Assembly (NCBI GenBank): GCA_030528645.1
Contig: JAUMYM010000003.1
Span: forward strand, 41,521 to 105,520
Origin: Erysipelotrichaceae bacterium
GTDB taxonomy: Bacteria; Bacillota_I; Bacilli_A; Erysipelotrichales; Erysipelotrichaceae
Length of the DNA: 64,000 bases
Direction of reading: 5' to 3'
Position numbers and translations under genes: made by a program
Notes under the pieces: model-generated
Seen by the model: the letters and a program-made list of their open reading frames with translations, nothing else
Told to the model about the DNA's origin: nothing
Databases searched by the model: none
Shown here: positions 4,901 through 48,186 of the stretch, piece after piece
Position numbering within the stretch: the first letter of the stretch is position 1
Layout of the letters: the number at the start of each line of letters is the position of its first letter

Positions 4901-5272
4901 TCTTCAGCAGCATTAGCCTTTGTTGTATTATATAACTTAACCAATGTAAATATTGCTGAACGTATACGTGAAATCGCAACCATCAAAGTTTTAGGTTTTT
5001 ACAATAAAGAAGTATATAGCTATATATTTAATGAAAATTTAATTCTTGCCCTAGTATCTTCTGCAATAGGGATAATTGTTGGGAAATATCTTCATCAAAC
5101 AATTATGCTTACTGTTGAGTTGGAACAAGTGATGTTTGGAAGAACCATTGCGCCTACAAGTTATATTTTGAGTGTGGCTTTAACAATATGTTTTACTTTT
5201 TTTGTTAATTTAGCTATGAAAAAAAGACTACGTAGTATCGATATGGTAGAATCACTAAAATCGGTAGAATAA
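1976..5272 (+). CDS. ABC transporter permease with tandem FtsX/MacB-type modules and a roughly 320-aa coiled-coil ectodomain
   Basis: The 1,098-aa product has TM1, an extracytoplasmic domain, a long heptad-rich K/E/Q-rich stretch (about 2675..3640) and then two FtsX-like four-helix TM bundles. The alternative start at 1958 overlaps the ATPase gene. Confidence 0.8.
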   Translation: MKKTILNNTIRTIVKTKSRFLSILFIVLIGVSFYSGIHMTSFIMRHSVDVYYKENNMMDYQVVSNYGLVNEDIQALNTIEGLHVLPGYSVDTHIVKHQQHIPSKIISIDIHKQTEAINRLSVVQGRLPKNANEIVLLDSVLKDGIFQLEDELYLPEDSFYQTAYQVVGFVRSPEYISKVKGKNSDGLDIEVIGYIDHSNFKSDVYHFANLIVNGSKQYNSFDSAYFNFLKPYTNQLKELGYQQAESRKEEIVAKANETLKNAKEEYEAQKKTYTEEIEKAKQKIEDAKREILLNESKVEAGKLVLESTTQASLLQIEFFEKQVVELQEQWNVYESNFKQQNSEVLKQKERLNNENKQLAERLTELEPKYNEVQLKIDTVKKEMDSINVQIQQLNQQLNDSSLSEEEKATLRLQLLDLNGELATKSVELTTLQLDNRYMEYQQIQLQIQTNLQTIKLIDDGLKSADTTLAKLQEQLEVAKAKVDKAKEDLETKKVEGEKQLASARASIEHAKKELAKAQGEVSKNEINGQEQLDFALDQITLAEEKIKAIEDVTWFILDRSKQYSYKDYESATIRMEKIAMIFPVFFFLIAALVTLTTMTRLIEESRLEIGTLKSLGFDFKTIAFKYMFYGLSATCIGSIVGLILGVFSIPSVIYHSWKLEYLLPNIQYTIDLKIIFITVFLSITVIFLTILLSIYKELIEKPANLLRAKQAVKAKTILLERMPFIWNRLSFISKVTMRNLARYKKKVIMTLIGVSGCTSLLVCGFGIKDSIQDITKLQFQEIYQYDGTVTLKNELTRSEKQTVIQSIKNIKGVKDVTFVSMFNGKVNNEEVDVMIGYEDQIDTFIHFRDRITHQTIASSEPGIVLSEKLAKKLNVKKHDMVTLTNKDQITKEFTVVGIAEHYVGHFAYINPHSYQEQYRMTIHYNTIFVKGQQEEVVDSISALPEVLHVNFYNRTIENFNNMIQSLNIVVLVLIVSSAALAFVVLYNLTNVNIAERIREIATIKVLGFYNKEVYSYIFNENLILALVSSAIGIIVGKYLHQTIMLTVELEQVMFGRTIAPTSYILSVALTICFTFFVNLAMKKRLRSIDMVESLKSVE

Positions 5273-10806: not shown

Positions 10807-13800
10807 ATGTTTAAAAAGATTTTTTTAATCGCTGTATTTCTGATTGCATCTATTGCATATAGAACTCTTAGTTTTGCAGAAACTGAGAAAACGAATATAA
10901 ATACGGAATCAGAAATTTCTACAAACACAGAAACGGAATCGAAAGATGAAGTTTCAACAACGATAACTGTTGATGAAAATGCAGAAAGTACGCCTGTAGT
11001 AGTTGAAGAAAATAATCAAACAACTACAGAAGAAGTAATTGCTACAGAGACATCGCCTGATGTAACAGGTCCGAATAGTACAAATCCTGAAACGTTACCT
11101 GAATCAAGTGAGCTGATGCCTGAAACAACAGAAGAAGTAAATGAAAAAATGACTTTAAATGCGGAAGCAGTAACAGAAGAAAACTTAGATGAAGGGATTA
11201 TTCCTGCAAATATAAATCCGTTATCAAAACAATTTGTATTTGATACAAACTTAAATCAATTCGTAAGTAACTTGGAGATTTCAGGTTTAGTGCAAGATGA
11301 ACAAGGAAATTATGTTGTGGTTCCATATACAGAATATTCCATTGACTTATCATTTAGAGAAACAGAAACATTGCAACTTGATATGGATGATACAGGCAAG
11401 GAGTTTATCTATACATTGCCAAGTGGATTAGAAGGTATTAATTCACAACCGACGAATTTTACGATTAATATTGTTGACCAAAATGGTTCGGCGAGTATTG
11501 CGGGAAATCAATTTACAGTTGAAAATGGACAAGTAAAAGTTCGTTTCAATGTAAATGATCCAAATTATGCTCGTTTAAAATTATTGCCAAATGTAGCGTT
11601 TACCTTAACAATTAAAGCTAGTTTTGATGGCACACAAACTCAAATTGATTTTGGTAATAATGTTGTGATTAAGTTAAAATTTGAAAACAATGCTAGTTTA
11701 GAGATTACAAAAACCGGTGCGCAACGTGGCGTATCATCAAAAATTGTTGATTATACATTAACGGTAAAATCAAATGGTATCAATGAAAATGTTCAAATTG
11801 AAGATGTTATTTCTGGAACAGCATTAAATCTAGATAAAAATTTATACATTGTATCAAGTGTAAAAGGTGAACTGAAACCAACGATTACCTATAACGAGGC
11901 ATCTGGTGTCAATAAAGGCTTCTCTACTACGATTGATCGTATGATTAGTGGAGAAATAGTAACGATTAAATATACTGCAAATATTGATTTTAATAAAATT
12001 ACAGATATTGGTACCGTTGCACAAACTGCAAATAGAGCAACAGCACAAAGTACACAATCACCTATGGTGGAAGCAAATCATAGCTTATATAAGAGTATTG
12101 CTTATAAAGGGGTTGAAAAAAAGGCTTCACCTCCAGTGACAAATCCTGGTAACTCTAATTTACATCAAGTGAGTTGGGAAATTAAGGTCAATGAAGAAAA
12201 GTTATTTGATATGAGTAACCGAGTGATTATGGATGAGGTTCATTCAACAAGTACAGGTGTTATGCATATCGTTGGTACTGGTATCAAAATGCAAGTCACA
12301 AAACCGGATGGTTCTGTTGAAAACAGAAATTTAGCATGGAGTGACTTAACGGTTATTCGTGATGGTAGTGGACGTATCACTTCTTGGAAGTATAATGTTC
12401 CATCAACGGATGGCGTTTCTAGTTATAAAATTACAGTAGACACTGAGGTAGATAGTTCAAATATTTTTGCTCGTTTAGTTGTAGTGAATAAAGCTAAAAT
12501 TGAAGGTATTAAAGAAACATCAGCTTCTCAAGTATTTACACCTGGAGTTGGACAAGATACCTTAACAGCAAAAAAAGAAGCAGTAAGTGTAAATAGTCAG
12601 GAAATTGAATGGAAGATTACCGTTGATGTAGCAAGTAAAGGTTACCCATCGTTCTTTATTGTAGATGATGTTACACGTATATTATATAAAGGAGTAACTT
12701 ATAAAGACGAATTCCTTAAACCAACATTATTGGTAGAAGGATTGTATCCGGAAGAATCCTATAAATTAAATGAAATCTTTAATGGAGATGCTAATACATT
12801 TACTTTGGTGTTCTACCAAAATCAAGAGCAAACCATTGAAGGATTAAAACCAAGTACAAACAATCAGAAACGTTCCATTGTAATTACTTATAAGGCAAAA
12901 GTAAATCAAGAAATTTTAGCTATTGCTCATGCCAATGGATATGCAGACTATACGGCTGAACACCGTAATAACATCTCAGCACGTGTAACATCGGGAGACT
13001 ATGTTGGTGCGGTTGCAAAAGCATACCCAAAAATTCAAACAATTGAAAAGAGCTATCTATCAATGACACAAGAAAATGTCAATGGTGCTCCTTATCCAGT
13101 CTTTAATTATTCAGTTGTAATTTCTAATGTATCTGGAGATCCAGAAACCATTTTAGATGCCTTTGATGTGAATTATTTGAAATATTACGATGCAAATGGA
13201 GTGGTAATTAAAGGTGGACCGACAGCGGAAGAACAAACAGTTGTTGGTGGAAATGCAACCGGTGAAGCAACGGTTGATGGTATGAAAATTAATATCCATG
13301 AGTTTCCAAAAAATGCCGGAAAATTATATCCATTCTATAAAGTAGAATATTCATTAATTGTAAAAGATAAAGCGGCTTTAGATGCGTTAAATGCCTTAGC
13401 GATTAACGCGCCGGAAGGATATCCATTAACAAATACAGCAACATGGAATGGATTAACAAGCCAAGTAACAGAAGCGAAACATACACATTTTCCATACGTT
13501 GATAAAAAGCTAGACTTAAATCCAAGTTCAGCAAATGATTATATTGCCGAGTTTTCAATTGTAGTAAATAAATTTGGGCAAGACTTAATTCCAAATGCCA
13601 ATGCTTTAAGTATATCTGATACTTTATCAGATAGCTTACGTTTCATCCCGGAATCAGTGGTATATGAACCAGCAGTAAACGCAACTTACAATTATGAAAA
13701 CAACGTTTTAACATTCAATGATTTACCGGATAATCAAAAGATAACAATTAAGTATAAAGCAAAAGTATTAGGAAAAGGACTTGTAAACTTTACAAATACA

Positions 13801-15561
13801 GCAAAATTCTCAAACTTTGAATCAAAGATTGTAAATAATGTAAATATTACTTACACAGGTTTAGGAACGGGAAGTAATCCAAGTATTACATTATTTAAAG
13901 TGGATGATATTGATAATACAAAACCGGTACAAGGCGTTGTATTCCAATTATTCTATGTCAATGATGCAGGAGTAGATGTTGCCGTAACTGATAAGAATAA
14001 TAACAATGTAACCTTTACAACAGGCGTAGATGGAAAGGTATTGGTGGTAGGAGATTCAGTCAATCTTGGATGGGCACTATGGAGTGATGGAAGAACCTAT
14101 AAACTAAGAGAAATCGCAAGACCAAGTTGGTATTTAGCCAAAGGAGAAGATGTTACATTTAAGTTTAAAGATATTCCGGTAGCTGCAGATGAGTATTCTG
14201 TAGTAGGAGAAACGTTAATGGTACAAAACAGTCGTGTAAAGACAACGGTAACTGCGACAAAGACATGGGTGAATGGACCGGCAAGCGATCATGTTTCAGT
14301 GCCTATGGAATTAACAAGAAGCAGTGCGACAGTAGCGAAAGAAGTTGTAAATGTAATGCCGGAAATTACAGGAACAGGACCATTTACATATACATGGAAA
14401 GATCTACCAAAAACAGATACATTAGGGAATAACTATACGTATGAAGTAAAAGAACAAGGTGAAGTAAATAGTGTTTATACAACTGCAGGTGGAAATAGCT
14501 ATGCAGTAAGTCAAGTAGGCAATAACATTACAAATACGTATCAAGCTGCCATGACAAGCTTTACGGCAACAAAGGTATGGGAAAATGGACCTGCAAATAG
14601 ACCAACGATTATGTTACAGTTAAAACGAAACGGAACTAATTTTGGTCAACCGGTAGCCCTAGTAAATCAAACGACAAAGACATGGGATAACTTACCAAAG
14701 AGTGATGATCAAGGTGTAGATTATGTCTATAGTGTTGATGAAGTAGGAACACCAACAAACTATAGAAAAGAGCTTGTAAACAATACAACGATTAAGAATA
14801 CGTATGTGATACCAAATACAACGGTAAAAGCAACAAAGGTATGGGTGAATGGACCTGTAACAGACCATAGCGCTGTTGATATTGAATTGTATCGCAATAT
14901 TTTAGGACAACCAGAACAGTTGGTAAATGTAGCACCAGTACTTTCAGGAACAGGACCATTTACATATACATGGAATAATCTTGAACAAACAGATATACAA
15001 GGGAATGAATACATTTATACAGTAAAAGAGAAAGGTGTAGTCAACAATGAGGTTGTGATTAATGGTAATACGTATGTTGTAAGTCAAGTAGGTAATACCA
15101 TTACCAACACATATCGAAGTGCAGAGATTAGTTTTACAGGTACAAAGGTATGGGAAAATGGACCAACCAATAGACCAAGTATACAGTTACAGTTAAAGCA
15201 AAATGGAGTGAACCATTTAGCACCGGTAACATTAGCGAATGGAACATTAAGTTATACATGGACTAAGTTACCAAAAACAGATCAACAAGGAGTAGACTAT
15301 GTCTATAGTATTGATGAAGTCGCTGTACCAGCTAATTATCGTAAGACCATTGTCGATGAACAAACGATTAAGAATATCTATGATCCGGTTGTAATAGTCC
15401 CAAGTGGAGGAGCGGATGAAGAAGTTGAAAGTGTATCACATAGTGTGAAGATACCAAAAACAGGTGATACAACGAATACAACGTTATATGTTGTCTTTGC
15501 TGTAGCGGCATCAGCTGGTTTAGCTTATGTAGTTCTTAAAAGAAAAAAGAATCGTGATTAA
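10807..15561 (+). CDS. Cell-wall-anchored surface adhesin, paralog 2, with an extra Thr/Glu-rich N-terminal low-complexity stretch
   Basis: The signal peptide is MFKKIFLIAVFLIASIAYRTLSFA. The N-terminal region is about 85% identical to paralog 1, the middle has diverged, and the C-terminal 804 aa are identical, including the IPKTG sorting signal. Confidence 0.85.
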   Translation: MFKKIFLIAVFLIASIAYRTLSFAETEKTNINTESEISTNTETESKDEVSTTITVDENAESTPVVVEENNQTTTEEVIATETSPDVTGPNSTNPETLPESSELMPETTEEVNEKMTLNAEAVTEENLDEGIIPANINPLSKQFVFDTNLNQFVSNLEISGLVQDEQGNYVVVPYTEYSIDLSFRETETLQLDMDDTGKEFIYTLPSGLEGINSQPTNFTINIVDQNGSASIAGNQFTVENGQVKVRFNVNDPNYARLKLLPNVAFTLTIKASFDGTQTQIDFGNNVVIKLKFENNASLEITKTGAQRGVSSKIVDYTLTVKSNGINENVQIEDVISGTALNLDKNLYIVSSVKGELKPTITYNEASGVNKGFSTTIDRMISGEIVTIKYTANIDFNKITDIGTVAQTANRATAQSTQSPMVEANHSLYKSIAYKGVEKKASPPVTNPGNSNLHQVSWEIKVNEEKLFDMSNRVIMDEVHSTSTGVMHIVGTGIKMQVTKPDGSVENRNLAWSDLTVIRDGSGRITSWKYNVPSTDGVSSYKITVDTEVDSSNIFARLVVVNKAKIEGIKETSASQVFTPGVGQDTLTAKKEAVSVNSQEIEWKITVDVASKGYPSFFIVDDVTRILYKGVTYKDEFLKPTLLVEGLYPEESYKLNEIFNGDANTFTLVFYQNQEQTIEGLKPSTNNQKRSIVITYKAKVNQEILAIAHANGYADYTAEHRNNISARVTSGDYVGAVAKAYPKIQTIEKSYLSMTQENVNGAPYPVFNYSVVISNVSGDPETILDAFDVNYLKYYDANGVVIKGGPTAEEQTVVGGNATGEATVDGMKINIHEFPKNAGKLYPFYKVEYSLIVKDKAALDALNALAINAPEGYPLTNTATWNGLTSQVTEAKHTHFPYVDKKLDLNPSSANDYIAEFSIVVNKFGQDLIPNANALSISDTLSDSLRFIPESVVYEPAVNATYNYENNVLTFNDLPDNQKITIKYKAKVLGKGLVNFTNTAKFSNFESKIVNNVNITYTGLGTGSNPSITLFKVDDIDNTKPVQGVVFQLFYVNDAGVDVAVTDKNNNNVTFTTGVDGKVLVVGDSVNLGWALWSDGRTYKLREIARPSWYLAKGEDVTFKFKDIPVAADEYSVVGETLMVQNSRVKTTVTATKTWVNGPASDHVSVPMELTRSSATVAKEVVNVMPEITGTGPFTYTWKDLPKTDTLGNNYTYEVKEQGEVNSVYTTAGGNSYAVSQVGNNITNTYQAAMTSFTATKVWENGPANRPTIMLQLKRNGTNFGQPVALVNQTTKTWDNLPKSDDQGVDYVYSVDEVGTPTNYRKELVNNTTIKNTYVIPNTTVKATKVWVNGPVTDHSAVDIELYRNILGQPEQLVNVAPVLSGTGPFTYTWNNLEQTDIQGNEYIYTVKEKGVVNNEVVINGNTYVVSQVGNTITNTYRSAEISFTGTKVWENGPTNRPSIQLQLKQNGVNHLAPVTLANGTLSYTWTKLPKTDQQGVDYVYSIDEVAVPANYRKTIVDEQTIKNIYDPVVIVPSGGADEEVESVSHSVKIPKTGDTTNTTLYVVFAVAASAGLAYVVLKRKKNRD
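13142..15561 (+). repeat. Copy B of the 2.42 kb near-identical direct repeat
   Basis: See copy A. Divergence resumes immediately after the stop codon. Confidence 0.85.
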
Positions 15562-33063: not shown

Positions 33064-34116
33064 ATGAAAAAAATATTTAAAAGTTACCTATTCAATATAT
33101 TAGTAATTGTATCTTTTACGATACTTGCATTATATTTTACCTTAAAAGATGATTTTAAAACGATTATCAATACTTTGGCGAATGTTAAGATTCCATATTT
33201 ATTGTTGGTCTTAGGTTTGGTGTTATTGATACAAGTATTAATCGGTATGATTCTAACAACGATTACTAAATTAAGTAATCCACATTATAAGTTACGCTAT
33301 GGCATTGTTAACGCCTTAGTAGCAACTTTTTTTCATGGTATTACTCCAAGTGCTTCCGGTGGTCAATTTGCTCAAGTATATGTTTTTAAAAAGCAAGGTG
33401 TTGATATTGCGGATAGTGCAAGTGTACTATGGATGGATTTTATTATTTATCAGGCAACGATGTGTCTTACTGTGTTGTTGTTAATTTTATTGCGTTTTAC
33501 TTATTTTTATCAAAAATATAGTCAGTTTTATATCTTTGTTCTGTTAGGTTTTTTAATTAATGCGTTTGTTATTTTTGGTTTATGGGCGATTGCTCGTTTT
33601 AAATCTGTTTATACTTTTTTAACAACCACATTAATTCGTATTGCACACAAGTTTCGTATAGTAAAAGATATCGATGCAACTTTGCACAATATTGATGTAC
33701 AATTGGAAAAGTTTAAACAAGAAACAGATAAGTTGAAAAAGCATAAATCTATTATTATCAAGTGTATTATTTTAAATGTAATTCGTTGTTTGCTATATTA
33801 TGCAGTTCCTTATTTTGTATATATTGCTTTAGGTTTTGAGGTACATCCGGGTATGTTGGTTTCTATGATGGCTCTTACTTCCTTTGTTTCTATGACAACG
33901 GCATTTATTCCAATTCCGGGAGCCAGTGGGGGTACTGAGGCAGTATTTACCTTGATGTTTTCAGCGATTATGGGTTTAAAAGCATCAAAAAGTGTCATGA
34001 TTTTATGGCGTTTTGCATCCTTTTATTTCATTATGTTGGTAGGTGCATTGGCGTTTGTATATTCAAAGGCAAGTAAAGAAGTGGAGGTTCATCATGAAGA
34101 TAGGCATATTTACTGA
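33064..34116 (+). CDS. UPF0104 / lysyl-phosphatidylglycerol-synthase-TM-like (flippase-like) membrane protein
   Basis: A 350-aa protein with about 8 TM segments, charged loops and an ASGGQFAQ motif. It overlaps the downstream GT4 gene. Confidence 0.55.
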   Translation: MKKIFKSYLFNILVIVSFTILALYFTLKDDFKTIINTLANVKIPYLLLVLGLVLLIQVLIGMILTTITKLSNPHYKLRYGIVNALVATFFHGITPSASGGQFAQVYVFKKQGVDIADSASVLWMDFIIYQATMCLTVLLLILLRFTYFYQKYSQFYIFVLLGFLINAFVIFGLWAIARFKSVYTFLTTTLIRIAHKFRIVKDIDATLHNIDVQLEKFKQETDKLKKHKSIIIKCIILNVIRCLLYYAVPYFVYIALGFEVHPGMLVSMMALTSFVSMTTAFIPIPGASGGTEAVFTLMFSAIMGLKASKSVMILWRFASFYFIMLVGALAFVYSKASKEVEVHHEDRHIY

Positions 34117-36094
34117 TACATATACTCCCGATATTAATGGGGTAGTATCTTCGGTTGTAACATTAAAAAATAGCTTAGAAAAAAATGGACATGAAGTCTA
34201 TGTGGTGACCACTTATCCGGGATTATTAAAAATTCAAAGAGAGAATAATGTGTTTCGTTTACCTGGGATTGAGTTAAAGTTTCTATATGGCTATGTATTA
34301 ACAAGTCCATTACATTTAAGTTTGGTGGATGAACTGGATCAATTACAGTTAGATTTAATCCATGTTCATACAGAGTTTGGGATTGGTATTTTTGCACGTA
34401 TAGTGGCAAAAAGTTTAAATATCCCATTGATTTCCACTTATCATACAACGTATGAAGACTATACACATTATATCAATTTCTTAAAGTTAAGTAGTATTGA
34501 TGAAATTGCTAAAAAAGCAGTTGCCAATTTAAGTAAGATGTATGGAGATTCATCTACGGAAGTTATTGCGCCTTCTGAAAAAACCAAAGAGATGCTGATG
34601 CGTTATAAAATTCGTTCTAAAGTGCATGTCGTTCCAACTGGTCTGGATTTAGATAAATTTAATCCTAAAAATAAAGTAGCATCTAAAGTAATGGCCATTA
34701 AAGAAGAATGTGGTATTAAAGAGGGTACTAAGATGCTTCTATATGTCGGTCGTATTGCAAAAGAAAAGGCGATTGATGTCGTTATTGAAGGTTTTAAGGA
34801 AGTAAAAGAAAAAAAATTAAATATTAAATTTGTAGTGGTTGGTGGTGGTCCTGACTTGGAAGGGCTACAGAAGCTAACAAGTGAATATGATTTGCAGGAT
34901 TACATTGTCTTTTTAGGTCGTAGAAGTGCCGATGTGGTTGCGGATTATTACTTAGCTGCAGATGCCTTTATTTCAGCTTCTTTAAGTGAAACACAAGGAG
35001 TTACTTTCATTGAGGCATTAGCAAGTGCTTTACCCGTATTTGCACGTAAAGATGATGTCATTGTTGATTTAGTATTAGATGGTAAAACAGGCTATTACTT
35101 TAATGAAGAAAAATCTCTTGCTACATGTTTAAAATTGTTTTTAGAGTTATCCAAAGAAGAATTAAAACGCATGCAAGAATGTGCGCTAGAAGTAGTTAAA
35201 CCATATGACATGAATGTGTTTTATCATAAGATTATGGAAGTATATCAAAGTAGTATTGATTTATATCGAAATCAATTCAAAGTAAAAGCTATTTCAAATA
35301 AAAATGATTATGTTACGGTTACATTTACTTCTTATAATAAAAAAGAAACAAAGATGATGATTAATATTGACTCTTTAATTAAATATGGGTTAAGAAAAGA
35401 TGTTGTAGTAACAAAAGATACGATAGATTTACTTTTGAAAGAAGAAAGTGTAGTAAAAGCCTATGATGCTTGTTTAAAGAAGATTGTATTAAAGGATCGT
35501 TCTCGCAAAGAAATGTATGATTTTTTAACACAAAAAACAACATTAGATATTGAAGATATCAATAATATTATTGAAAAACTAGAACAACGTGGTTTAATTG
35601 ATGATTATAAGTATGCCAAAGGACAAGTTTATAACTTAAATTTACTGCTACAAGGACCATTTAAAATTTCTAAATTTTTAAAGAAAAAAGGAATTTCTAT
35701 GGATATCATTGAAGAAGTAGTGAATAAAGAGATAAAACAGGAAGATGAAGATAAACATGCATTAATGTATGCGAACAAAGTGGTGTCTACGATTAAAGGG
35801 AAGTCATTTAAAATGAAGAAGATTCTTTTAAAAGAAAAAATGTTTCATCAGGGCTTTTCTAAAGATGTAATTGATGTAGTAATCGATAAGGTTGATTTTG
35901 GTGCAGATGACTTAAATCAAATGAATACATTAAAAAAAGTAGTGAATAAGGCTTATAAACGCTATAGCAATAAATATAAGGGCAGCAAATTAAGAAACAA
36001 TATATTTCGTTATTGTTTAATGCAAGGGTTTGAAGTGGAAGATATCTACTCAATATTAAATGAAATGGAGTGGGATGATGAGTCAAAAAATTAA
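34094..36094 (+). CDS. GT4 glycosyltransferase (diacylglycerol glucosyltransferase-like N-terminus MKIGIFTDTYTPDINGVV) fused in frame to a C-terminal RecX-like domain
   Basis: GGAGG ribosome-binding site at 34080. The GT-B fold signatures fall in residues 1 to about 400. The C-terminal roughly 255 aa (about 35330..36094) show the RecX-like helical repeat pattern (RSRKEMYDFLTQK..., GLIDDYKYAKG). There is no stop between the two parts. Confidence 0.65.
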   Translation: MKIGIFTDTYTPDINGVVSSVVTLKNSLEKNGHEVYVVTTYPGLLKIQRENNVFRLPGIELKFLYGYVLTSPLHLSLVDELDQLQLDLIHVHTEFGIGIFARIVAKSLNIPLISTYHTTYEDYTHYINFLKLSSIDEIAKKAVANLSKMYGDSSTEVIAPSEKTKEMLMRYKIRSKVHVVPTGLDLDKFNPKNKVASKVMAIKEECGIKEGTKMLLYVGRIAKEKAIDVVIEGFKEVKEKKLNIKFVVVGGGPDLEGLQKLTSEYDLQDYIVFLGRRSADVVADYYLAADAFISASLSETQGVTFIEALASALPVFARKDDVIVDLVLDGKTGYYFNEEKSLATCLKLFLELSKEELKRMQECALEVVKPYDMNVFYHKIMEVYQSSIDLYRNQFKVKAISNKNDYVTVTFTSYNKKETKMMINIDSLIKYGLRKDVVVTKDTIDLLLKEESVVKAYDACLKKIVLKDRSRKEMYDFLTQKTTLDIEDINNIIEKLEQRGLIDDYKYAKGQVYNLNLLLQGPFKISKFLKKKGISMDIIEEVVNKEIKQEDEDKHALMYANKVVSTIKGKSFKMKKILLKEKMFHQGFSKDVIDVVIDKVDFGADDLNQMNTLKKVVNKAYKRYSNKYKGSKLRNNIFRYCLMQGFEVEDIYSILNEMEWDDESKN

Positions 36095-37016
36095 AGATTT
36101 AAATTTAGGTGAAGTGGTAACGATGCCTGTTTTAATTACGACATTTTCTACGGCTAAGACGACAAGTGGAGCAACCTATTTAACGTTATATCTTCAAGAT
36201 GCTTCTGCTGGCTTAGAATCAAAGTGTTGGGATGTAAAAGAAGATATGTTGAAATCGTTGAAAGCGGGTTTAGTATTTCAAGTAACGTTTGAAGTCTTAA
36301 AATATAAAAATGCATTACAAGGGAAAGTGTACAATATTGTTCCGATGGATCAATCTACCATCCATATAGAAGATTTCTTAATTACATCGAAAGTTCCTGT
36401 AGAACAACTACAACAAGTTGTAAAGCAAAATATTAATGCGATAGGTAATGAAATTATACGTAAGATTATTATTGAGCTTTATAAAGAATATCACGATGCA
36501 TTTTTTCGTTATCCGGCAGCTAGCAAAAATCATCATAATTTTGTTGGTGGTTTGGCAACCCATGTGGTTGGTATGTTAAATCTTGCGAATCATTTATGTG
36601 ACTTATATCCACTATTATCACGTGATTTAATGTTAGCAGGGGTATTACTACATGATTTGGGAAAAGTTAATGAACTATCAGGTCCTATTAATACAGAATA
36701 TACGATGGAAGGGAAACTCATAGGACATATCTCTATTATGAATGCTAAGATATATGAAGTAAGCCATCGTTTAGGTTATCAAGATAGTGAAGAGGCTATT
36801 TTACTTCGTCATTTAGTATTATCGCATCATGGACAACTGGAATATGGTTCTCCTGTAATGCCATTGATTTTAGAAGCTGAAATGTTGCATTTCATCGATA
36901 ATATTGATGCACGTATGAATACATTGGAGAAGGCTTTTTCAGAAGTGAAAGCAGGAGAATTTACTACAAAGTTATTCCCTATGGAAAATCGTAGTTTTTA
37001 TAAACATAATTTATAA
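36075..37016 (+). CDS. yhaM: 3'-5' exoribonuclease YhaM (OB-fold plus HD domain)
   Basis: An N-terminal OB fold and the HD motifs HHNFVGGLATH and LSHHGQLEYGSP. The ribosome-binding site is ggagtggg. Confidence 0.75.
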   Translation: MMSQKIKDLNLGEVVTMPVLITTFSTAKTTSGATYLTLYLQDASAGLESKCWDVKEDMLKSLKAGLVFQVTFEVLKYKNALQGKVYNIVPMDQSTIHIEDFLITSKVPVEQLQQVVKQNINAIGNEIIRKIIIELYKEYHDAFFRYPAASKNHHNFVGGLATHVVGMLNLANHLCDLYPLLSRDLMLAGVLLHDLGKVNELSGPINTEYTMEGKLIGHISIMNAKIYEVSHRLGYQDSEEAILLRHLVLSHHGQLEYGSPVMPLILEAEMLHFIDNIDARMNTLEKAFSEVKAGEFTTKLFPMENRSFYKHNL

Positions 37017-37084: not shown

Positions 37085-39298
37085 ATGAACAAAACAATAA
37101 AAACCATTATCTTAAGAATAATTCTTCCAGGCATTGTATTAGCGCTATGTTTTTTACCTTTATTAATTGGTCGTATACAATACGCTGGATATGATATAAA
37201 TAATGAATATTTAATTTATTATCAAAGCTTTAAACAACATATTTTAGATGGAACAATTCCATTGTGGGATTTTCAATCTTTTTTAGGAAATAATTTTATT
37301 GCTTCAAAATCTTATTATTTTATAGGAGATCTTTTTGCATACTTACCAGTTTTTTTAAATAAGATACCTGTACAATATGTTATGGTTTTAAGTCATATCC
37401 TTAAATTATTACTAGCATATAATTTATTCTACAGCTTACTTCAATACGTTCAATTAAAAAATAGAACAAAAGTTTTATTTTCACTCCTTTATATCTTTAG
37501 TGGCTTTAGTTTAGTATTCTTTGGACAACCTATGTTTTTAACAACCTATAGTTTGTTTCCGTTGTTACTAATTGCGATTGAACGATATATACGATTCCAT
37601 AAAATAGGTTTTATTTATCTAGCAAGTTTGTTGCTTGTTATGGCTAATTACTATTTATTCTGGTCAATTTCAATGTTTTTAATGGTGTATTGGCCAATTC
37701 GTTATTTTATGCAACATGAATTTCATTGGAAACCTTTTTTAAAGCAATCTTTTTTAGCTATTGTAATCTATATGCTTGGAGCATTAAGCTATGCAGTTGT
37801 ATTATTGCCGACAGCTTTATTTTTAAGACAGAGTCCACGTGTTGATTCTTTTCATTTAGCATGGTTTTATAAGCCTGATGTATATTTTAATATCTTACAA
37901 AATGTATTTAGCTATCCAAGCAATGTAAGCTATTCTAAGACTTTATTTAGCAGTAATTATTATCGTTATGATCAAATACCACTCTATGTTTCTTTCATTG
38001 TGTTTCCATTGCTATTACAAATAAAACAATGCTTTAACAAAAAACAAGTACATCTTCTTTTAGTTGCTTTTGCAATCGCAGTAATGATCTTAGTTATACC
38101 AATGGGTGGAAGTTTCATGCATGGTTTTGCAGAATCCAGTCATCGATGGGTGTTTATGCTGGCAACTGTTTTTTTGCTTATTGCAGCAATCGTTTATGAT
38201 CAGCATAAGTTTCATAAGAAACTGACTTTATTAGCACTTTTTATACAGATAGTAATCGTTTTAGGCTTACTATTTATTGCAAAAGATCGTTTTCTTCAAC
38301 ATCGTTATGAATTATTCTTGTTTGGCTTTTCTATTGTCGGGGTTTTCTTTTTCTATTTATATCAAACAGGAAAATTAAAGAAAAGTATACTAGTGGTTTT
38401 TATACTTTTAGAAGTTATATTAAATTACACTTGGTCAAATGTACAATATCAACTCAAATATCAAAATGGGTATCATAGTTTAAATAAAGATTACTTTAGT
38501 CAAGAAGTTCTTTCTATATTAAAAGAAGATAATGCACGTACCAGTATTTATCAATATTATGTAGGCATTGATTTTGATAAAGATTTTTTAAATAATGTAG
38601 GTATCTATTATGGATTTAATACGACTATGGGTTATGATAGTGTGTATCATCATAGCTTAAAGCCATTTTTACAAATGATTAATGAAATCTATTGGTGGTT
38701 TCAAGTAGTTGACTATGATGCTTTACAGATGTTAAGTACAAAGTATTATATTGTAAAAGATAAAAATGAATTACCGCATGAACAATTTACACCTTTAGGA
38801 AGTTTGGGTAAGAGTGAGTATTTACTCTTTGAAGATCAACAGTATCTTCCTATGGGGTATACGTATGTAGATACCATTACGTTTGAAGAGTTGTATCAAT
38901 ATGATTACTATACACAACTTCATCACATGAAGAATCGCTTAGTCACCAATCAACAACAACCATTGAGTGGAACACGTAGCTACCTAAAAGATTTTCAAAT
39001 TCAAAAAAACACCATTAAAGGAAATATTGATGTGAATGGAAATCAATATTTATTCTTTTCGATTCCTTATGATGAAGGTTGGACATGTTATGTCAATGGA
39101 AAAGTAATGCCGATTCAAAAAGCACACCAAGGATTTATGGCAATTTATTTACAGGAAGGACACCATGAAATTACCTTGACGTTTATACCAAATGGTTTGA
39201 AAAAAGGGATGTTGTTGAGTGTTGTCGCGATTGTAAGTTATGTTATGATAGTTGTATTGCATCATGTATATAACAAAAGAAGGGAAAAACGGGTATGA
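37085..39298 (+). CDS. YfhO-family polytopic membrane protein (GT-C-type glycosyltransferase)
   Basis: A 737-aa protein with many TM segments and a C-terminal extracytoplasmic domain, the architecture typical of YfhO. Confidence 0.7.
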   Translation: MNKTIKTIILRIILPGIVLALCFLPLLIGRIQYAGYDINNEYLIYYQSFKQHILDGTIPLWDFQSFLGNNFIASKSYYFIGDLFAYLPVFLNKIPVQYVMVLSHILKLLLAYNLFYSLLQYVQLKNRTKVLFSLLYIFSGFSLVFFGQPMFLTTYSLFPLLLIAIERYIRFHKIGFIYLASLLLVMANYYLFWSISMFLMVYWPIRYFMQHEFHWKPFLKQSFLAIVIYMLGALSYAVVLLPTALFLRQSPRVDSFHLAWFYKPDVYFNILQNVFSYPSNVSYSKTLFSSNYYRYDQIPLYVSFIVFPLLLQIKQCFNKKQVHLLLVAFAIAVMILVIPMGGSFMHGFAESSHRWVFMLATVFLLIAAIVYDQHKFHKKLTLLALFIQIVIVLGLLFIAKDRFLQHRYELFLFGFSIVGVFFFYLYQTGKLKKSILVVFILLEVILNYTWSNVQYQLKYQNGYHSLNKDYFSQEVLSILKEDNARTSIYQYYVGIDFDKDFLNNVGIYYGFNTTMGYDSVYHHSLKPFLQMINEIYWWFQVVDYDALQMLSTKYYIVKDKNELPHEQFTPLGSLGKSEYLLFEDQQYLPMGYTYVDTITFEELYQYDYYTQLHHMKNRLVTNQQQPLSGTRSYLKDFQIQKNTIKGNIDVNGNQYLFFSIPYDEGWTCYVNGKVMPIQKAHQGFMAIYLQEGHHEITLTFIPNGLKKGMLLSVVAIVSYVMIVVLHHVYNKRREKRV

Positions 39299-40773
39299 AT
39301 AAAATACTAAATAAAGATAAACTATTAATGTTGATAGGTGGAGTATTTATTTATGTGTTATTTTATTATATTTCTAAGCAAACACCATTGGCTGGCGATG
39401 ATTGGGGTTATGCCTTTAATGGATTAAATGATAATATTTTTCACACAATATCTCATTTCTATACGAATTGGTCGGGTAGAGTTTTTAGTGAGTTTTACAG
39501 TTTAACTGTCATACCTCAGAAGTGGTTGTGGAATCTACTTAATCCTTTGTTATTTCTGTTTATTTATTATATGTTAATAAAAATTATAAATAAGAAATCT
39601 TATGTCATCTATGTTGGAGTACTTATGTTCATGTTAAGTGTATCCAATCACATGCGCATGCAAACTTACACATGGCTTACCGGTACAGGGTTTTATACAA
39701 TAGCCTTGTTAAGTTTATTAGTGTATCTATACATCATTAAAAGTGTCTTACTACATAAAAAACAATTTAATCTGTATCGTATTCTAATCGCAATCTTATG
39801 CAATGTACAAATATCGATGAGTATGGAAAATGCAGCTATTATTTTAGTGCTTTTAAATATGAGTGTTTTAGTCTATGCATACATCTATAAAAAAGAATAT
39901 TTTAAAATCTTTTTTCTTATTTTTATCTTTAATCTTGTAGCTTTTGCGGTATTATTCTTTGCACCGGGTTCTTCACAAAGACTATTGAGGGATCATGCTG
40001 ATTGGGTTTCATTATCTGTTTTTGAGAAGATAAGTATCAACTGGAAGCATTTTATGTATTACACATTCTTAAGTAGTCCTATTTTATTTTCGTTTTTTAA
40101 TATTGTAAGTTTAATACATATATTTACGAATTGGAAACAGAATAAATATGTAAAGAGTATGATAGCTTTGATTATTATGATGAGTTTTTTATTCCTCTTT
40201 GCTGAAAAACTGCACATATCTTGGCTGGTAGATATGAAAGATATACGCATTGTGATTTTCCTTACTGTTTATTATTTTTTGTATGCTATTAGTATCTTTT
40301 ATGTACTTTATCATGTTTTCGAAAGAACCTTATTTATAGAAGTAAGTGTATATATTGTTCTTGCAGGAGTAAGTAATGCTGTTATGATGATGAGTCCAAT
40401 TTTTGCAGCTCGTTCCAGTTTGTATACGTATTATTTATTAGTATTAGTTGTGTTACTTCTGATGAATGAGTTAAAAGGAAAAAGTATCTATCCAATCTTT
40501 GTAGTTATTTCTATAGGCATTATTGGTATAAAGACCATTAATTATATTAAAATATATCAAACAGTTAGCCACTTTCATCATATGCGTATGCAACAAATTC
40601 AATATTATCAAGATAATCCAAATGAAAAAGAAGCATGGCTTGTACGCATGCCTACTGAATTAATTCATTCTTATGATATAGAATTGAATGATACTTATCA
40701 TCAAGAAGTATTTAAAAAATATTTTAAATTAAATCCGGAAATGAAGCTCATATTCTATAATCATAAAAAGTAA
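39295..40773 (+). CDS. Polytopic membrane protein, possibly a GT-C-like glycosyltransferase
   Basis: A 492-aa protein with about 12 TM segments and a DDWGY motif after TM1. It is translationally coupled (ATGA) to the YfhO-like gene. Confidence 0.45.
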   Translation: MNKILNKDKLLMLIGGVFIYVLFYYISKQTPLAGDDWGYAFNGLNDNIFHTISHFYTNWSGRVFSEFYSLTVIPQKWLWNLLNPLLFLFIYYMLIKIINKKSYVIYVGVLMFMLSVSNHMRMQTYTWLTGTGFYTIALLSLLVYLYIIKSVLLHKKQFNLYRILIAILCNVQISMSMENAAIILVLLNMSVLVYAYIYKKEYFKIFFLIFIFNLVAFAVLFFAPGSSQRLLRDHADWVSLSVFEKISINWKHFMYYTFLSSPILFSFFNIVSLIHIFTNWKQNKYVKSMIALIIMMSFLFLFAEKLHISWLVDMKDIRIVIFLTVYYFLYAISIFYVLYHVFERTLFIEVSVYIVLAGVSNAVMMMSPIFAARSSLYTYYLLVLVVLLLMNELKGKSIYPIFVVISIGIIGIKTINYIKIYQTVSHFHHMRMQQIQYYQDNPNEKEAWLVRMPTELIHSYDIELNDTYHQEVFKKYFKLNPEMKLIFYNHKK

Positions 40774-40799
40774 AAAAGCTATTGTTAAATAGCTTTTTA
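40774..40799. terminator. Bidirectional terminator between convergent genes
   Basis: aaaaagctatt-gtta-aatagcttttt. Confidence 0.6.
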
Positions 40800-42986
40800 T
40801 TGTGGTCCTTTTGAAATTTGGAACTTGAATACAGTACTTGGATCATAATCTCCTGAACCGGGATAATCTCCAACTAGTTGCCCGACATTTTCATCTGAAT
40901 GTACTAATTCAATTTGAATTTGACTATCCGGAACACCTAAAGATTTTAAGTAATTTGTAATAATCGTTTTTGATTCATCCGCAGAAGTGGAATTAACAAT
41001 CTTTATTTGTACATCAATAATCGTAATTTTCTCTACAGGTTTTTTACCTAAAGATGCTTTACATGATACAGATTTTCCTGATATAGAACAATCGTAAGTG
41101 ATTCCACTTGCAACTGTATCAGAGTATTCATCTACAAAGTTTAATGTTAATCCAGCACCTTGGTTATTAAGTGTTGCTAAGTGTTGGTTTGCTTGTTCTT
41201 TGGTTTTGTTGTTGAAATCAGAGACATTAATTGGTAGTTGACCACGTGATAAAGTCAGTGTGATTTCTGTATTAATAGCGACTTTGGTACCTGAGGCAAT
41301 ACTTTGATTCACTACTTCATCTTTTGGTTTACTACTCCAATTTGTTTCAGATACAAATTTGAATTTTAAACCATTTACACTACATCCAGTATTGGCACAT
41401 GGTTTTTGACTTCCAATATAATTACCTACAACAATACCTGCACCTTTTGATTTTTTACAACTAATTGTATTACCGGTTACTTTACAGTCATAAAGTAAGT
41501 TTGCGGCAACAGTATCATTAAAGTCTCCACCATCTACAGTTAATTTGAAGTTAGCCCCTTGATTGTTGTAAGTTGCTAAAGTGGTTCTAGCTGCTTCTTC
41601 GGTTTGGTTATTGTATTGTGCTAAGTCAGGTTTGTAAGCTCCTTTTGAAGTTGTATAGTTGATAGAAGATCCTTTTTTAAATTCTCCTGTAACATTAGTA
41701 ACGATGTTATCTTTTGCATAAGAGCTATAAGATTCTCCAGTTTTATTTGGTACAAGTCCTTGTTTCTTTAAGAAGGTAATAAATTCATTTTCAGGCTTAT
41801 TAACATAGCTATCTACTTTAATAAGTTGTCCTTTGCTGACTTTAATTTTAATTTTACTACCCGGTTTAATACTATTTAATTTTGTTGTTGGTTTATCAAT
41901 TTCTTTTCCATCAACAATCATAGAGATAATATTGTTTTCTGCAACTTTGTTGTTTACTTCGTTAATATATTCAACACTGATATTTGCAGATTCATTGTTA
42001 CTCTTATTCAATTTTGCAATGTAACTTTCAAAATCTGCTTTTGATTTTCCTACATAATTATTTAATGGTACAAAACCAATAGAGATATAGGCAGTGAGTT
42101 TACTATTGGGTTTAATCTTAGAGTTGGCTTTTGGATTCGTAGAAATAATTAATCCACTTGCTACAGTTGGACTATAAGAATCAACAAAGGTAACAGAAAT
42201 TTTATTGGCTTTTGCCCATTTTGATAAAGCCGCTTTTTCTTTTCCATTAAAGTTTTCTAAGACAATGCCTTTTCCACTAGATAATACAACTTTTACTTTA
42301 GAACCAGTTGTAGAAGCTTCATTAGCCTTCGGATTTTGTGATACTACTTTACCTTCGGATATACTATCAGAGGCTTCACTTGTAAAGGAAACACTCATAT
42401 TATTTGTTTTCGCCCATGCTTGAATATTTTCTTTTGTAAAGTCTTTAAAGTCCGGAATAATAATTGGTAAACCCACAGAATCTGTTCCGGCAGAAATAGA
42501 AACTAAAATAACTTCACTACGTTTGGCTTGGTTACCGGTAATATTTAATTTAACAAATTTTCCTTTGGCGATTTCTTGATGAGGAATGTACTCTACAGTT
42601 ACATCTGTAAATAATTGTTCTTTAAACCAAGCTGTAATTTCTGCTTCTGTTTTATCTTTAAAGTCAATAAGATCAACTAGTTTATCAGGGTCACTTCCTT
42701 TTGAAACCGTAAAGCTAATCTTTTGTTTAATTGGTTTATTTTTTTCAATAGATTGACTTATTACAATGTCTTTTTCGATTGTTTCACTAAATTCGTAGAG
42801 AATTTCAATCTTATCACTTTTCACTTTATGTTTCTCTTGCCAAGCAATTACTTCTGCAATATTTTTATTTACAAAATCTTCTGCTTTTAATTGTGGTGAA
42901 AAAAATAAGAATGCTAATGCAGCCACGACGAATGTGCCTAAAATTCCTGTAATAATCAATAAAATTTTAGTTGTATTATTTTTCAT
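40797..42986 (-). CDS. Membrane-anchored protein with multiple PASTA-like repeats and Cys-rich inserts
   Basis: An N-terminal TM segment (ILLIITGILGTFVVAALAFLFF) followed by repeated units of about 70 aa ending in ...SKG / ...SSGKG. Two Cys clusters are present. There is no kinase or PBP domain. Confidence 0.55.
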   Translation of the reverse strand: MKNNTTKILLIITGILGTFVVAALAFLFFSPQLKAEDFVNKNIAEVIAWQEKHKVKSDKIEILYEFSETIEKDIVISQSIEKNKPIKQKISFTVSKGSDPDKLVDLIDFKDKTEAEITAWFKEQLFTDVTVEYIPHQEIAKGKFVKLNITGNQAKRSEVILVSISAGTDSVGLPIIIPDFKDFTKENIQAWAKTNNMSVSFTSEASDSISEGKVVSQNPKANEASTTGSKVKVVLSSGKGIVLENFNGKEKAALSKWAKANKISVTFVDSYSPTVASGLIISTNPKANSKIKPNSKLTAYISIGFVPLNNYVGKSKADFESYIAKLNKSNNESANISVEYINEVNNKVAENNIISMIVDGKEIDKPTTKLNSIKPGSKIKIKVSKGQLIKVDSYVNKPENEFITFLKKQGLVPNKTGESYSSYAKDNIVTNVTGEFKKGSSINYTTSKGAYKPDLAQYNNQTEEAARTTLATYNNQGANFKLTVDGGDFNDTVAANLLYDCKVTGNTISCKKSKGAGIVVGNYIGSQKPCANTGCSVNGLKFKFVSETNWSSKPKDEVVNQSIASGTKVAINTEITLTLSRGQLPINVSDFNNKTKEQANQHLATLNNQGAGLTLNFVDEYSDTVASGITYDCSISGKSVSCKASLGKKPVEKITIIDVQIKIVNSTSADESKTIITNYLKSLGVPDSQIQIELVHSDENVGQLVGDYPGSGDYDPSTVFKFQISKGPQ

Positions 42987-45881: not shown

Positions 45882-47420
45882 ATGTTAGCAAATAAAGAAG
45901 ATTTATACAACATTATCACCTCTGATACGTTGACGTATCACCAAAAATTAATGAGTTTAGGAAATGCGGCAGAACGCTTGTTTAATCCAATGGAATTATT
46001 AGGCTATACGCAAGAAGAATGGGATTATATTAATAATCAAATGATTTGTGATTTAAATGAAGGATATGCGATTTATCGCCCTCGTTATATTATTCCGGAT
46101 TATAGTGTATATATGAAAAATGGCTGTAAGTTTTTAGACTTACCAGCACCAAAGGATTTAGATGAAGCATTAGATGGTTTATTAATTTTATACTCTCATG
46201 TTCCATCAATTACAACCTATCCAGTATTCATTGGACATTTAGATATGCTTTTAGATCCATTTGTAAAAGATGAACAACAAGATTATATAAAGATTAAACG
46301 TTTCTTGAATCATATTGATAAAATGATTCCAGATTCATTTTGTCATGCCAATGTAGGACCTAAGGATACCTTAGCAGGTCGTTTGATTTTAAAAGCAGTG
46401 ATTGAACTTCAAAATCCAACACCGAATATGTCGATTAAGTATAATAAAGAAACTACATCAAGAGAATTTGCGGAACTTGCAGCAAAAGCATGTTTATTAG
46501 TTTCAAAACCATCATTTGCAAATGATGAATATTACAAGAGTGATTTAGGCGACTATGCTTTAGCAAGTTGTTATAATGCCTTACCACTTGCAGGAGGAGC
46601 TTACACCCTTACTCGTTTACGTTTAGGTACGATTGCAAAAGGAGCAAGTTCTACTGAAGATATGGTAAATCATTTATTACCTAAAGTAGCAAAACTTGCC
46701 CTATCTACTATGGATAAAAGACATCGTTTCTTAGTAGAAAAATCAAATTACTTTAAGACTGATTTCTTAACAAAAGAAGGCTTCTTAAAACGTGATAATT
46801 TTACAAGTATGATTGCCATTGTTGGTTTAGCGGATGCTGTAAATCACTTCTTAGCACTAGAAGGTATTTCTGAAACATTCGGGTCATCTACTCGTGGAGA
46901 TGAAATTGCAACAATGATTATGGAAAAACTGAAAGAAGTGAATGATAATCATGAAGGTGTTTATGTAGGAAGAACAAAGAATCGTTATTTATTACATGCT
47001 CAAGTTGGAGCAGGCTTACATGAAGAAGACAAAAACAATACTCCGGCTCATCGTGTGAAAGTAGGGCAAGAACCAATGTTGTTAGATCATTTAAAACAAT
47101 CTGCACCATTCCATAAGTATTTCCCATCAGGAACAGGTGATTTATTTGCCTTTGATCAAACGTATGTAGATCATTTAGATGCAGTCGTTGATATTATTGA
47201 TGGAGCTTTTGCTTTAGGGTATCGTTATATTACAACGTATTTAAAGAATACAGATTTAATACGTGTAACAGGTTACTTAGTGAAAAAGAGTGAAGTAGAA
47301 AAATATCGTAAAGGTGAAGTTGTTTTACGTGATACTACTTGGTATGGTTCGCAAACAGATGACAATGCACAAGTATTTGATCGTTCTTTAAGAGATGAGG
47401 CTAATGTTGCCGGAAAGTAA
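45882..47420 (+). CDS. YjjI-family glycyl-radical enzyme
   Basis: A 512-aa protein with the C-terminal glycyl-radical motif RVTGY (Gly codon at 47271..47273). It is immediately followed by a radical-SAM activase whose start overlaps it. Confidence 0.7.
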   Translation: MLANKEDLYNIITSDTLTYHQKLMSLGNAAERLFNPMELLGYTQEEWDYINNQMICDLNEGYAIYRPRYIIPDYSVYMKNGCKFLDLPAPKDLDEALDGLLILYSHVPSITTYPVFIGHLDMLLDPFVKDEQQDYIKIKRFLNHIDKMIPDSFCHANVGPKDTLAGRLILKAVIELQNPTPNMSIKYNKETTSREFAELAAKACLLVSKPSFANDEYYKSDLGDYALASCYNALPLAGGAYTLTRLRLGTIAKGASSTEDMVNHLLPKVAKLALSTMDKRHRFLVEKSNYFKTDFLTKEGFLKRDNFTSMIAIVGLADAVNHFLALEGISETFGSSTRGDEIATMIMEKLKEVNDNHEGVYVGRTKNRYLLHAQVGAGLHEEDKNNTPAHRVKVGQEPMLLDHLKQSAPFHKYFPSGTGDLFAFDQTYVDHLDAVVDIIDGAFALGYRYITTYLKNTDLIRVTGYLVKKSEVEKYRKGEVVLRDTTWYGSQTDDNAQVFDRSLRDEANVAGK

Positions 47421-48186
47421 TCTAGAAGAAATCTATGTAAAATTGCATCGCATTATTCCCTTTTCAAATGTAGAAGGACAAGGAAATCGTTGCAGTATAT
47501 TTCTTCAAGGCTGTAACATCAATTGTTTATACTGTCATAATCCAGAAACCATTCCAACAGATGATGAACATGCTAAGGTGGTTAGTTTAGCTTATATTTT
47601 AAACGAAATAAAAAAATCGATGCCATTTATTCGAGGCATTACTGTATCTGGTGGAGAACCAACCTTACATTATAAAAAGCTAGTACCTTTGTTTAAAGAA
47701 GTTAGAAAGTTAGGTTTAACTTGTTATCTGGATTCAAATGGTTTCTTTGACTTTGAAAAGATGAAAGAGTTAATAGAAGTAACAGATAAATTTCTATTTG
47801 ATATTAAGGGTATTGGAAGTGGTTTAGAATATCTATGTTTTGATTTGAGAAATGTAAAGGGTGAAGAAAGTAAGAATGAAGTAACAAAGCCATCTTATAT
47901 GAGTCAAAACATTGAAAATTTAAGAAAGCTTTTGCCCTTAGGTAAAATTGAAGAAGTAAGATTGGTTCATATCAAAGGATTTTATGATTCATATAAGACG
48001 GTCGATGCCATTGTAAGTGTGGTCAAAGGGTATCCTGAAGTATTATTTAAACTCATTCGGGTACACGGAAAAGGTGCACGAAATGAAGCTTTTATTACAA
48101 ATAAAATGCCAAGTATCCAGGAACATGAAGCACTTGCTGAATATGCTAAAAGCATAGGTTTACAACACATTGTAGTAATTAATTAA
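47395..48186 (+). CDS. Glycyl-radical-enzyme activating protein (radical SAM, YjjW-like)
   Basis: CNINCLYCHN, a CX3CX2C motif, near the N-terminus. The glycine-rich SAM motif is GGEPT. Confidence 0.8.
   Translation: MRLMLPESNLEEIYVKLHRIIPFSNVEGQGNRCSIFLQGCNINCLYCHNPETIPTDDEHAKVVSLAYILNEIKKSMPFIRGITVSGGEPTLHYKKLVPLFKEVRKLGLTCYLDSNGFFDFEKMKELIEVTDKFLFDIKGIGSGLEYLCFDLRNVKGEESKNEVTKPSYMSQNIENLRKLLPLGKIEEVRLVHIKGFYDSYKTVDAIVSVVKGYPEVLFKLIRVHGKGARNEAFITNKMPSIQEHEALAEYAKSIGLQHIVVIN

Follow-up and report, generated by a model that had tools for sequence, protein, structure and literature searches.

In a stretch of 64,000 nucleotides from an Erysipelotrichaceae bacterium (assembly GCA_030528645.1, contig JAUMYM010000003.1, positions 41,521 to 105,520 of the forward strand; hereafter the window), a single gene, designated mgs::recX, encodes a glycosyltransferase (GT) resembling alpha-monoglucosyl-diacylglycerol synthase (Mgs) that continues in frame into a RecX domain. 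RecX is known as a small and free protein that acts on the nucleoid as a brake on RecA. Here it has no small gene of its own and is fused in frame to an enzyme of 394 residues. The fusion is genuine, occurs across the order Erysipelotrichales and is kept by selection; it is probably ancient and probably yields one bifunctional protein of the cytoplasmic face with a working RecX held at the membrane. What is new is the way in which two domains of well-known families are arranged and linked. Fused sequences are already public under partial names (‘RecX family transcriptional regulator’, ‘glycosyltransferase’ or ‘1,2-diacylglycerol 3-alpha-glucosyltransferase’), and the fusion is apparently undescribed in the literature: full texts yielded no description of a GT-RecX fusion, of a recX-yhaM pairing or of RecX in Erysipelotrichia.

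Two domains in one reading frame

From its ATG to its TAA the gene runs without internal stop or frame change in the window sequence, as an earlier note on this DNA had stated for the two halves, and its length lies within the range of full-length homologues (655-668 amino acids). A program-made list of open reading frames (ORFs) begins the fusion at a GTG at position 34043. The true start is placed at 34094 because every homologue begins at the methionine of an MKIG or MRIG sequence. The coordinates of the gene, its domains and its neighbours are collected in Table 1.

Table 1. Coordinates in the window of mgs::recX, its parts and the genes discussed with it
Feature	Position	Strand	Basis and remarks
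mgs::recX fusion gene	34094..36094	+	666 codons plus TAA stop (36092-36094); ORF, profiles, full-length homologues
Shine-Dalgarno sequence GGAGG	34083..34087	+	6 nucleotides 5′ of the mgs::recX ATG; read from the sequence
Mgs-like GT4 / GT-B glycosyltransferase domain, residues 1-394	34094..35275	+	NF049988, Pfam, fold matches, AlphaFold2
E299-x7-E307 motif (SETQGVTFIEA)	34988..35014	+	invariant in the homologue alignment
Long-form RecX N-terminal beta-strand module, residues 395-455	35276..35458	+	AlphaFold2 strands (pLDDT 84-89 across the junction), start of NF010733 match, starts of stand-alone RecX
RecX helical repeats, tandem three-helix units, residues 456-666	35459..36091	+	Pfam, PDB sequence and fold matches
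Flippase-like membrane protein (LPG_synthase_TM, TIGR00374)	33064..34116	+	3′ end overlaps the fusion start by 23 nucleotides
yhaM, 3′-5′ exoribonuclease YhaM, HD domain	36060..37016	+	NF010007, model 1-310 of 314, E 2e-104
Second glycolipid glycosyltransferase, IagA/BgsA family, 334 amino acids	56128..57132	+	NF053513, 498.7 bits, cut-off 460

Profile searches of each half, which the earlier note had proposed, match both end to end, the first as a GT4 enzyme of Mgs type and the second as RecX. The assignment of the N-terminal ∼400 amino acids to a GT-B/GT4 enzyme is borne out by Pfam, by the Mgs model NF049988 of NCBIfam and by fold matches. In Pfam, Glyco_transf_4 covers residues 14-188 (105 bits) and Glycos_transf_1 residues 202-362 (110 bits), both well over their cut-offs, and these provide the two Rossmann-like domains expected of a GT-B enzyme, N-terminal and C-terminal, respectively. 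NF049988 aligns residues 1-394 to positions 1-394 of a model of 398 (E 1e-87, 295 bits). The full-length AlphaFold2 (AF2) model matches the GT4 enzymes MshA, BshA and PimA over ∼400 columns (Foldseek, E 1e-22 to 1e-18). Residues E299, T300, Q301, G302, T304 and E307 are unchanged in 121 homologues, in which a GR..EK motif is also kept without exception; E299-x7-E307 is the EX7E motif, which we take to be the catalytic-site signature of retaining GT4 enzymes. Judged by its sequence, the domain is Mgs-like, its equivalence to Mgs and its sugar and acceptor specificity falling short of established.

The RecX nature of the C-terminal half emerges from profiles, sequences and folds alike. Two Pfam helical repeats are recognized, RecX_HTH1 at residues 456-496 (35.7 bits in the whole protein and up to 39.5, for a cut-off of 26) and RecX_HTH3 at residues 610-655 (25.4 bits in the whole protein, 29.6 for the C-terminal half alone), while RecX_HTH2 is weak and stays under its cut-off (14.9-16.9 bits). 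The NCBIfam model of long-form RecX, NF010733, aligns residues 396-659 to positions 6-264 of 267 (E 1e-37). Among solved structures, the Lactobacillus RecX proteins 3E3V and 3D5L are found by sequence at 1.8e-11 and 2.8e-7. The AF2 model of this half alone has a predicted local distance difference test (pLDDT) of 90 and a predicted template modelling score (pTM) of 0.75, with visible helix triplets, and all six PDB chains that it retrieves at E ≤ 1e-3 are RecX (3D5L, 3E3V, 3C1D, 3DFG). Target-normalised template modelling (TM) scores are 0.76-0.86 for 3D5L, 3E3V, E. coli 3C1D and Xanthomonas 3DFG. Residues D468, E473, D504, L529, G533, G587 and G645 are invariant or nearly so in the fused family, and stand-alone RecX proteins aligned with it conserve them as well. 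A comparison of the electrostatics of the two domains gave nothing discriminating.

The earlier note rightly described the C-terminal ∼255 amino acids as RecX-like, and its boundary at about 35330 is slightly late: RecX begins at residue ∼395 (nucleotide 35276), because the long form carries a beta-strand module of ∼60 residues before the helical repeats. This module weakly resembles small beta-barrels of Mop/tungbindin, Sso7d and SH3-like type (Foldseek, E 0.2-2), and a newer Pfam release apparently names it RecX_N (PF27462), according to precomputed matches for an Atopobacter RecX.

The passage from one domain to the other is direct. In the full-length AF2 model the last GT-B helix (residues 373-392) leads into strands at residues 394-402, 407-413 and 418-423; the pLDDT is 84-92 through the junction, and with a helix running straight into strands at such values no disordered linker separates the halves. 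Among the 121 sequences a single position near the junction varies in length, residue 414. These sequences share no conserved methionine in the stretch from residue 395 to residue 470, and an internal start that would produce a free RecX was dismissed. A fold search of the full-length model against the PDB found no solved chain that covers both halves.

Each half has well-characterized counterparts. B. subtilis RecX/YfhG (264 amino acids, NF010733) resembles the RecX of the fusion in length (∼270 amino acids) and in layout, with an N-terminal beta module followed by three-helix repeats, and the fold of Lactobacillus RecX is alike (target-normalised TM 0.81-0.86 for 3D5L and 3E3V). The Bacillus-type protein is free, whereas here RecX makes up the C-terminal 40 % of a glycosyltransferase of 666 amino acids. 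The GT half, for its part, resembles AlMGS of Acholeplasma laidlawii (NF049988) in its full-length match, its EX7E motif and the presence in the genome of a second enzyme of BgsA/IagA type; the known enzyme ends at ∼398 amino acids, whereas the fusion protein runs on into RecX.

Conservation of the fusion and its probable reversals

In a search space of 5.8 billion proteins, at least 120 clusters with lengths of 659-668 amino acids cover 99-100 % of the query at 45-97 % identity, their named members being Anaerorhabdus and metagenome-assembled genomes (MAGs) of Erysipelotrichaceae. A survey of the best 80 loci, with one genome per GTDB species, finds the full fusion in the same register in all 80, across the order Erysipelotrichales. 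The record titles of these loci name the genera Erysipelothrix, Bulleidia, Solobacterium, Holdemania, Holdemanella and Amedibacillus, and likewise Thomasclavelia, Breznakia, Traorella, Merdibacter, Lactimicrobium and Anaerorhabdus. To the question raised by the earlier note, whether orthologues are fused or separate, the answer is thus that they are fused in every one of the best loci, and that separate genes are confined to few lineages, either derived from within the fused clade or branching deeply.

Purifying selection is strong on each half, and equally so on the two. Among the 121 sequences the GT half has a mean pairwise identity of 55 %, the RecX half one of 45 %. In 11 pairs of close relatives, the ratio of non-synonymous to synonymous substitution rates (dN/dS, Nei-Gojobori method) ranges over 0.03-0.10 in the GT half and over 0.03-0.14 in the RecX half. 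Between the window and an independent assembly that is 97 % identical and also fused (locus L094), it is 0.059 and 0.069, respectively. As dN/dS is low in each half, both are kept by selection. Together with the end-to-end profiles, the RecX fold, the 80 loci and the clusters, this supports one of the two options left by the earlier note, that of a genuine GT4-RecX domain fusion.

Relatives with a separate recX do exist. An exhaustive search with the RecX half against 1.84 billion representatives gave 1905 matches at E ≤ 1e-3. The best 150 comprise 26 fused proteins (610-667 amino acids), many fragments and some true stand-alone proteins of 263-291 amino acids, several of which bear Erysipelotrichales names. 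One apparent close free RecX, P0122 (268 amino acids), was dismissed: its cluster holds fragments named as glycosyltransferases and its contig measures 1.2 kb, so that it is probably a truncated fused gene. All stand-alone RecX proteins start at the domain border (profile positions 388-398 of 662), and the remnant of a GT sought at their N-terminus as proof of deletion was not found.

Detached recX genes were examined at seven loci (L081, L085, L087, L089, L091, L092 and L093) and stand in several contexts. In one, a divergent helix-turn-helix gene precedes recX, yhaM, murT and gatD; in another, seen at several loci, the order is HAD, recX, yhaM; a third, LPG_synthase_TM, recX, yhaM, murT, gatD, is the order of the window minus the GT domain. 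At L093 both genes are present and adjacent, in the order GT4, LPG_synthase_TM, mgs (392 amino acids), recX (270 amino acids), yhaM, murT, gatD, and the mgs stop and recX start overlap as ATGA (5001..5004) in different frames. Every stand-alone recX examined in the order is immediately followed by yhaM. Another kind of split is seen at L060 (6132..6134), from the rumen MAG RUG12927, where one in-frame TAA lies in the RecX N-terminal module of a gene otherwise collinear with the fused one. Either a nonsense mutation or an error of sequencing may account for this stop, and, as just one in-frame TAA in a MAG, L060 was dismissed as an ancestral two-gene state.

The adjacent YhaM serves as a linked phylogenetic marker; the neighbour-joining tree built on it has no bootstrap, and the identity ranking is the firmer guide. 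The YhaM of the split lineage L093 is 75 % identical to that of a fused neighbour (L043), and those of the GT-less loci L081 and L087, both in the murT-gatD context, are 64-65 % identical to fused neighbours of Bulleidia/Solobacterium type, against a median of 46 % to fused lineages. These three lineages are nested in the fused clade, and secondary fission is therefore the parsimonious reading. The fusion appears to have been undone at least three independent times within that clade, through one frame change and two losses of the GT from the locus. The group with HAD, recX and yhaM branches deeply.

Detachment is accompanied by a change in the pace of RecX divergence. At 60-70 % YhaM identity, RecX identity is 0.31 between detached and fused proteins (n=54) and 0.44 between fused ones (n=136); at 70-85 %, the values are 0.31 (n=3) and 0.54 (n=23). 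Independence of the pairs cannot be assumed, since they overlap in their members, and the two bins draw on three lineages only. At matched YhaM divergence detached RecX has diverged faster, which suggests that the fused state adds constraint on RecX.

Genomic neighbourhood

The fusion gene belongs to a co-directional cluster in the order ftsW, rsmD, coaD, LPG_synthase_TM, mgs::recX, yhaM, yfhO, DUF6056, whose junctions overlap or are very short. The flippase-like gene stands immediately 5′ of the fusion in 49 of the 80 loci. On the other side, yhaM follows immediately in 73; it is ∼0.9 kb away in one, and the contig ends first in six. The likely start of yhaM in the window is the ATG at 36075 or 36078, after a GGAG at 36067-36070, and overlaps the 3′ end of the fusion. 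Overlap of stop and start codons is usual between recX and yhaM in Erysipelotrichales, whether recX is fused or free (loci L001-L093). The gene mgs::recX is translationally coupled to the flippase-like gene on its 5′ side and to yhaM on its 3′ side.

The recX of the fusion is always followed by yhaM, whereas recX genes of Firmicutes generally have no conserved context (Cardenas et al., PMC3527212). Atopobacter (Lactobacillales), the sole case examined outside the order, has recX beside mutY, with neither mgs nor yhaM, in agreement with this published lack of context (PMC3527212). A parallel is found in the recA-recX operons of E. coli and Mycobacterium, where, as in the fusion, genetic coupling to a partner sets the dosage of RecX (PMC3527212). 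In Proteobacteria and Actinobacteria recX is co-transcribed with recA as its partner, whereas here the partners are a lipid glycosyltransferase, coupled by covalent fusion, and the YhaM gene, coupled by overlap.

The IagA/BgsA-family enzyme of Table 1 likely catalyses the step after Mgs, its family building the glycolipid anchor of lipoteichoic acid. In ∼37 of the 80 loci a GT4 paralogue of ∼335 amino acids is found no more than a few kb from the fusion; in the window this paralogue is the IagA/BgsA-family enzyme and is unlinked. A scan for promoters and terminators gave counts not above those of shuffled sequences in this DNA of 32 % G+C, and no terminator-like site was found on the + strand between 30801 and 40773.

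Other genes of the window were recorded in passing. Membrane-protein genes for YfhO and DUF6056 follow yhaM (37085..40773), with YfhO also present in the 97 % identical relative (L094). A YfhO gene presumably lies near recX in B. subtilis as well; a YfhO-recX linkage was treated as coincidence, a YfhO match being present in none of the 80 other loci. Two tandem paralogous genes (5889..10544 and 10807..15561) encode surface proteins of ∼1550 amino acids with C-terminal Cna_B repeats and share identical 14-mers at 8217 and 13234. In a protein of 728 amino acids (40797..42986, − strand), the match to Stk1/PknB kinases is confined to their PASTA repeats (model positions 367-551 of 563), and a kinase domain was not detected. 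A YjjI-like glycyl-radical enzyme and its radical-SAM activase are paired at 45882..48186.

Putative function, origin and significance

The families of the two halves suggest how the protein may work. The N-terminal GT4 domain would, like an Mgs, transfer glucose from UDP-Glc onto diacylglycerol to make alpha-glucosyl-diacylglycerol, the first step towards the glycolipid or lipoteichoic-acid anchor, with the BgsA/IagA enzyme and the flippase-like protein acting after it. AlMGS is a monotopic enzyme that attaches to the membrane on its cytosolic side by way of an amphipathic helix and anionic lipids (PMC6506492). The Mgs half of the fusion would sit in the same way on the inner membrane face, and the C-terminal RecX would be cytoplasmic because AlMGS acts on the cytosolic side. 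Long-form RecX of B. subtilis modulates the SOS response, depolymerises RecA filaments and acts on the nucleoid (PMC3527212, PMC5587729). Reached straight from the last GT helix, the full long-form RecX module of the fusion probably still binds RecA and destabilises its filaments, as in Bacillus. It would then be made 1:1 with a lipid enzyme and held at the membrane rather than diffusing over the nucleoid. RecA binding and membrane tethering are both suggested by family membership, and tethering by the published Acholeplasma Mgs (PMC6506492). Membrane-associated storage structures or assemblies of RecA reported in E. coli (PMC6363387) make a membrane-proximal RecX plausible, and are not evidence for it. 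The fusion most probably arose near the base of the order by loss of the stop codon between translationally coupled neighbours (mgs-recX-yhaM), to be undone a few times since.

Several observations weigh against a bifunctional protein with a working, membrane-held RecX. Both modules are divergent, the GT half scoring 295 bits for an equivalog cut-off of 400 in NF049988 and the RecX half 130-133 bits for a cut-off of 240 in NF010733. The relative orientation of the two halves is uncertain in the full-length AF2 model, whose pTM is 0.65 for a pLDDT of 88. The 64-kb window contains neither recA nor lexA, nor any exact SOS box (GAAC-N4-GTTC); relaxed matches occur at chance level, none of them near the gene, and SOS regulation of the fusion was dismissed on these grounds. 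A membrane anchor might hinder the role that RecX has on the nucleoid. Finally, the fusion can be reversed without loss of recX, which shows that the covalent link is not indispensable.

In the most serious alternative, unlikely on balance, the fusion is neutral: the stop between two translationally coupled neighbours was lost, the domains are independent like beads on a string, and neither membrane tethering nor 1:1 stoichiometry is adaptive. Adjacent overlapping genes are indeed the rule in the cluster, a split and adjacent state with an ATGA overlap exists at L093, and several lineages live with a detached recX. Fusions of this kind usually have variable linkers, yet the junction is of fixed length in 121 sequences and predicted to be structured; moreover, the fused state is kept throughout the order with rare reversals, and RecX diverges faster once detached.

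At the other extreme, the covalent link could itself be the function, the whole order using the enzyme that initiates synthesis of the glycolipid or lipoteichoic-acid anchor to fix what is apparently its sole RecX to the inner face of the membrane. This stronger version of the bifunctional protein is tentative and, as matters stand, doubtful. If true, it would tie the control of RecA filaments to the membrane, or make lipid synthesis for the envelope responsive to the state of RecA and DNA, possibly with participation of the co-translated YhaM nuclease, and would constitute an undescribed direct coupling, at the protein level, of DNA-damage handling and envelope biogenesis.

It is quite improbable that co-option has ended the action of the RecX-like module on RecA, the module serving instead the glycosyltransferase in regulation, oligomerisation or partner binding, or working with YhaM on the 3′ ends of nucleic acids. 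Such a role would fit the recX-yhaM pairing, which holds without exception in the order, with mgs attached or detached, whereas Atopobacter, outside it, has mutY in that place, and it would fit as well the RecX scores under the equivalog cut-off and the lack of a recA or SOS link in the window. The module nonetheless retains the whole RecX architecture and shares D468, E473, D504, G533, G587 and G645 with stand-alone RecX, and its fold matches that of the E. coli and Xanthomonas proteins. In addition, in all seven cases of a stand-alone recX examined within the order the locus is the yhaM-linked one, with no sign of a separate canonical recX to which the RecA role could have passed. As for the other option of the earlier note, a sequencing or assembly error that joined two genes, it is extremely improbable: no support for it was found beyond the split examples L060 (in-frame TAA in a MAG) and L093 (frame change), while the same fused ORF recurs in hundreds of independent assemblies, including the 97 % identical one, selection acts on both halves, and the relatives with separate genes are nested inside a fused clade that spans the order.

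The fusion is genuine and selectively kept, and the bifunctional, membrane-held protein is the probable reading of it. The whole order, to which the pathogens of the genus Erysipelothrix and numerous genera of the gut belong, would make its RecX as the C-terminal end of a lipid enzyme of the membrane surface, with the exception of a few lineages. Each of the automated names in use, RecX regulator or glycosyltransferase, conceals the other half of the protein. A specialist of RecA would find the fusion surprising, and it offers a clean experimental handle. It raises the questions of why recX and yhaM are inseparable, of the role of the N-terminal module of long-form RecX, and of whether RecA regulation in Erysipelotrichales may have a membrane-proximal component.

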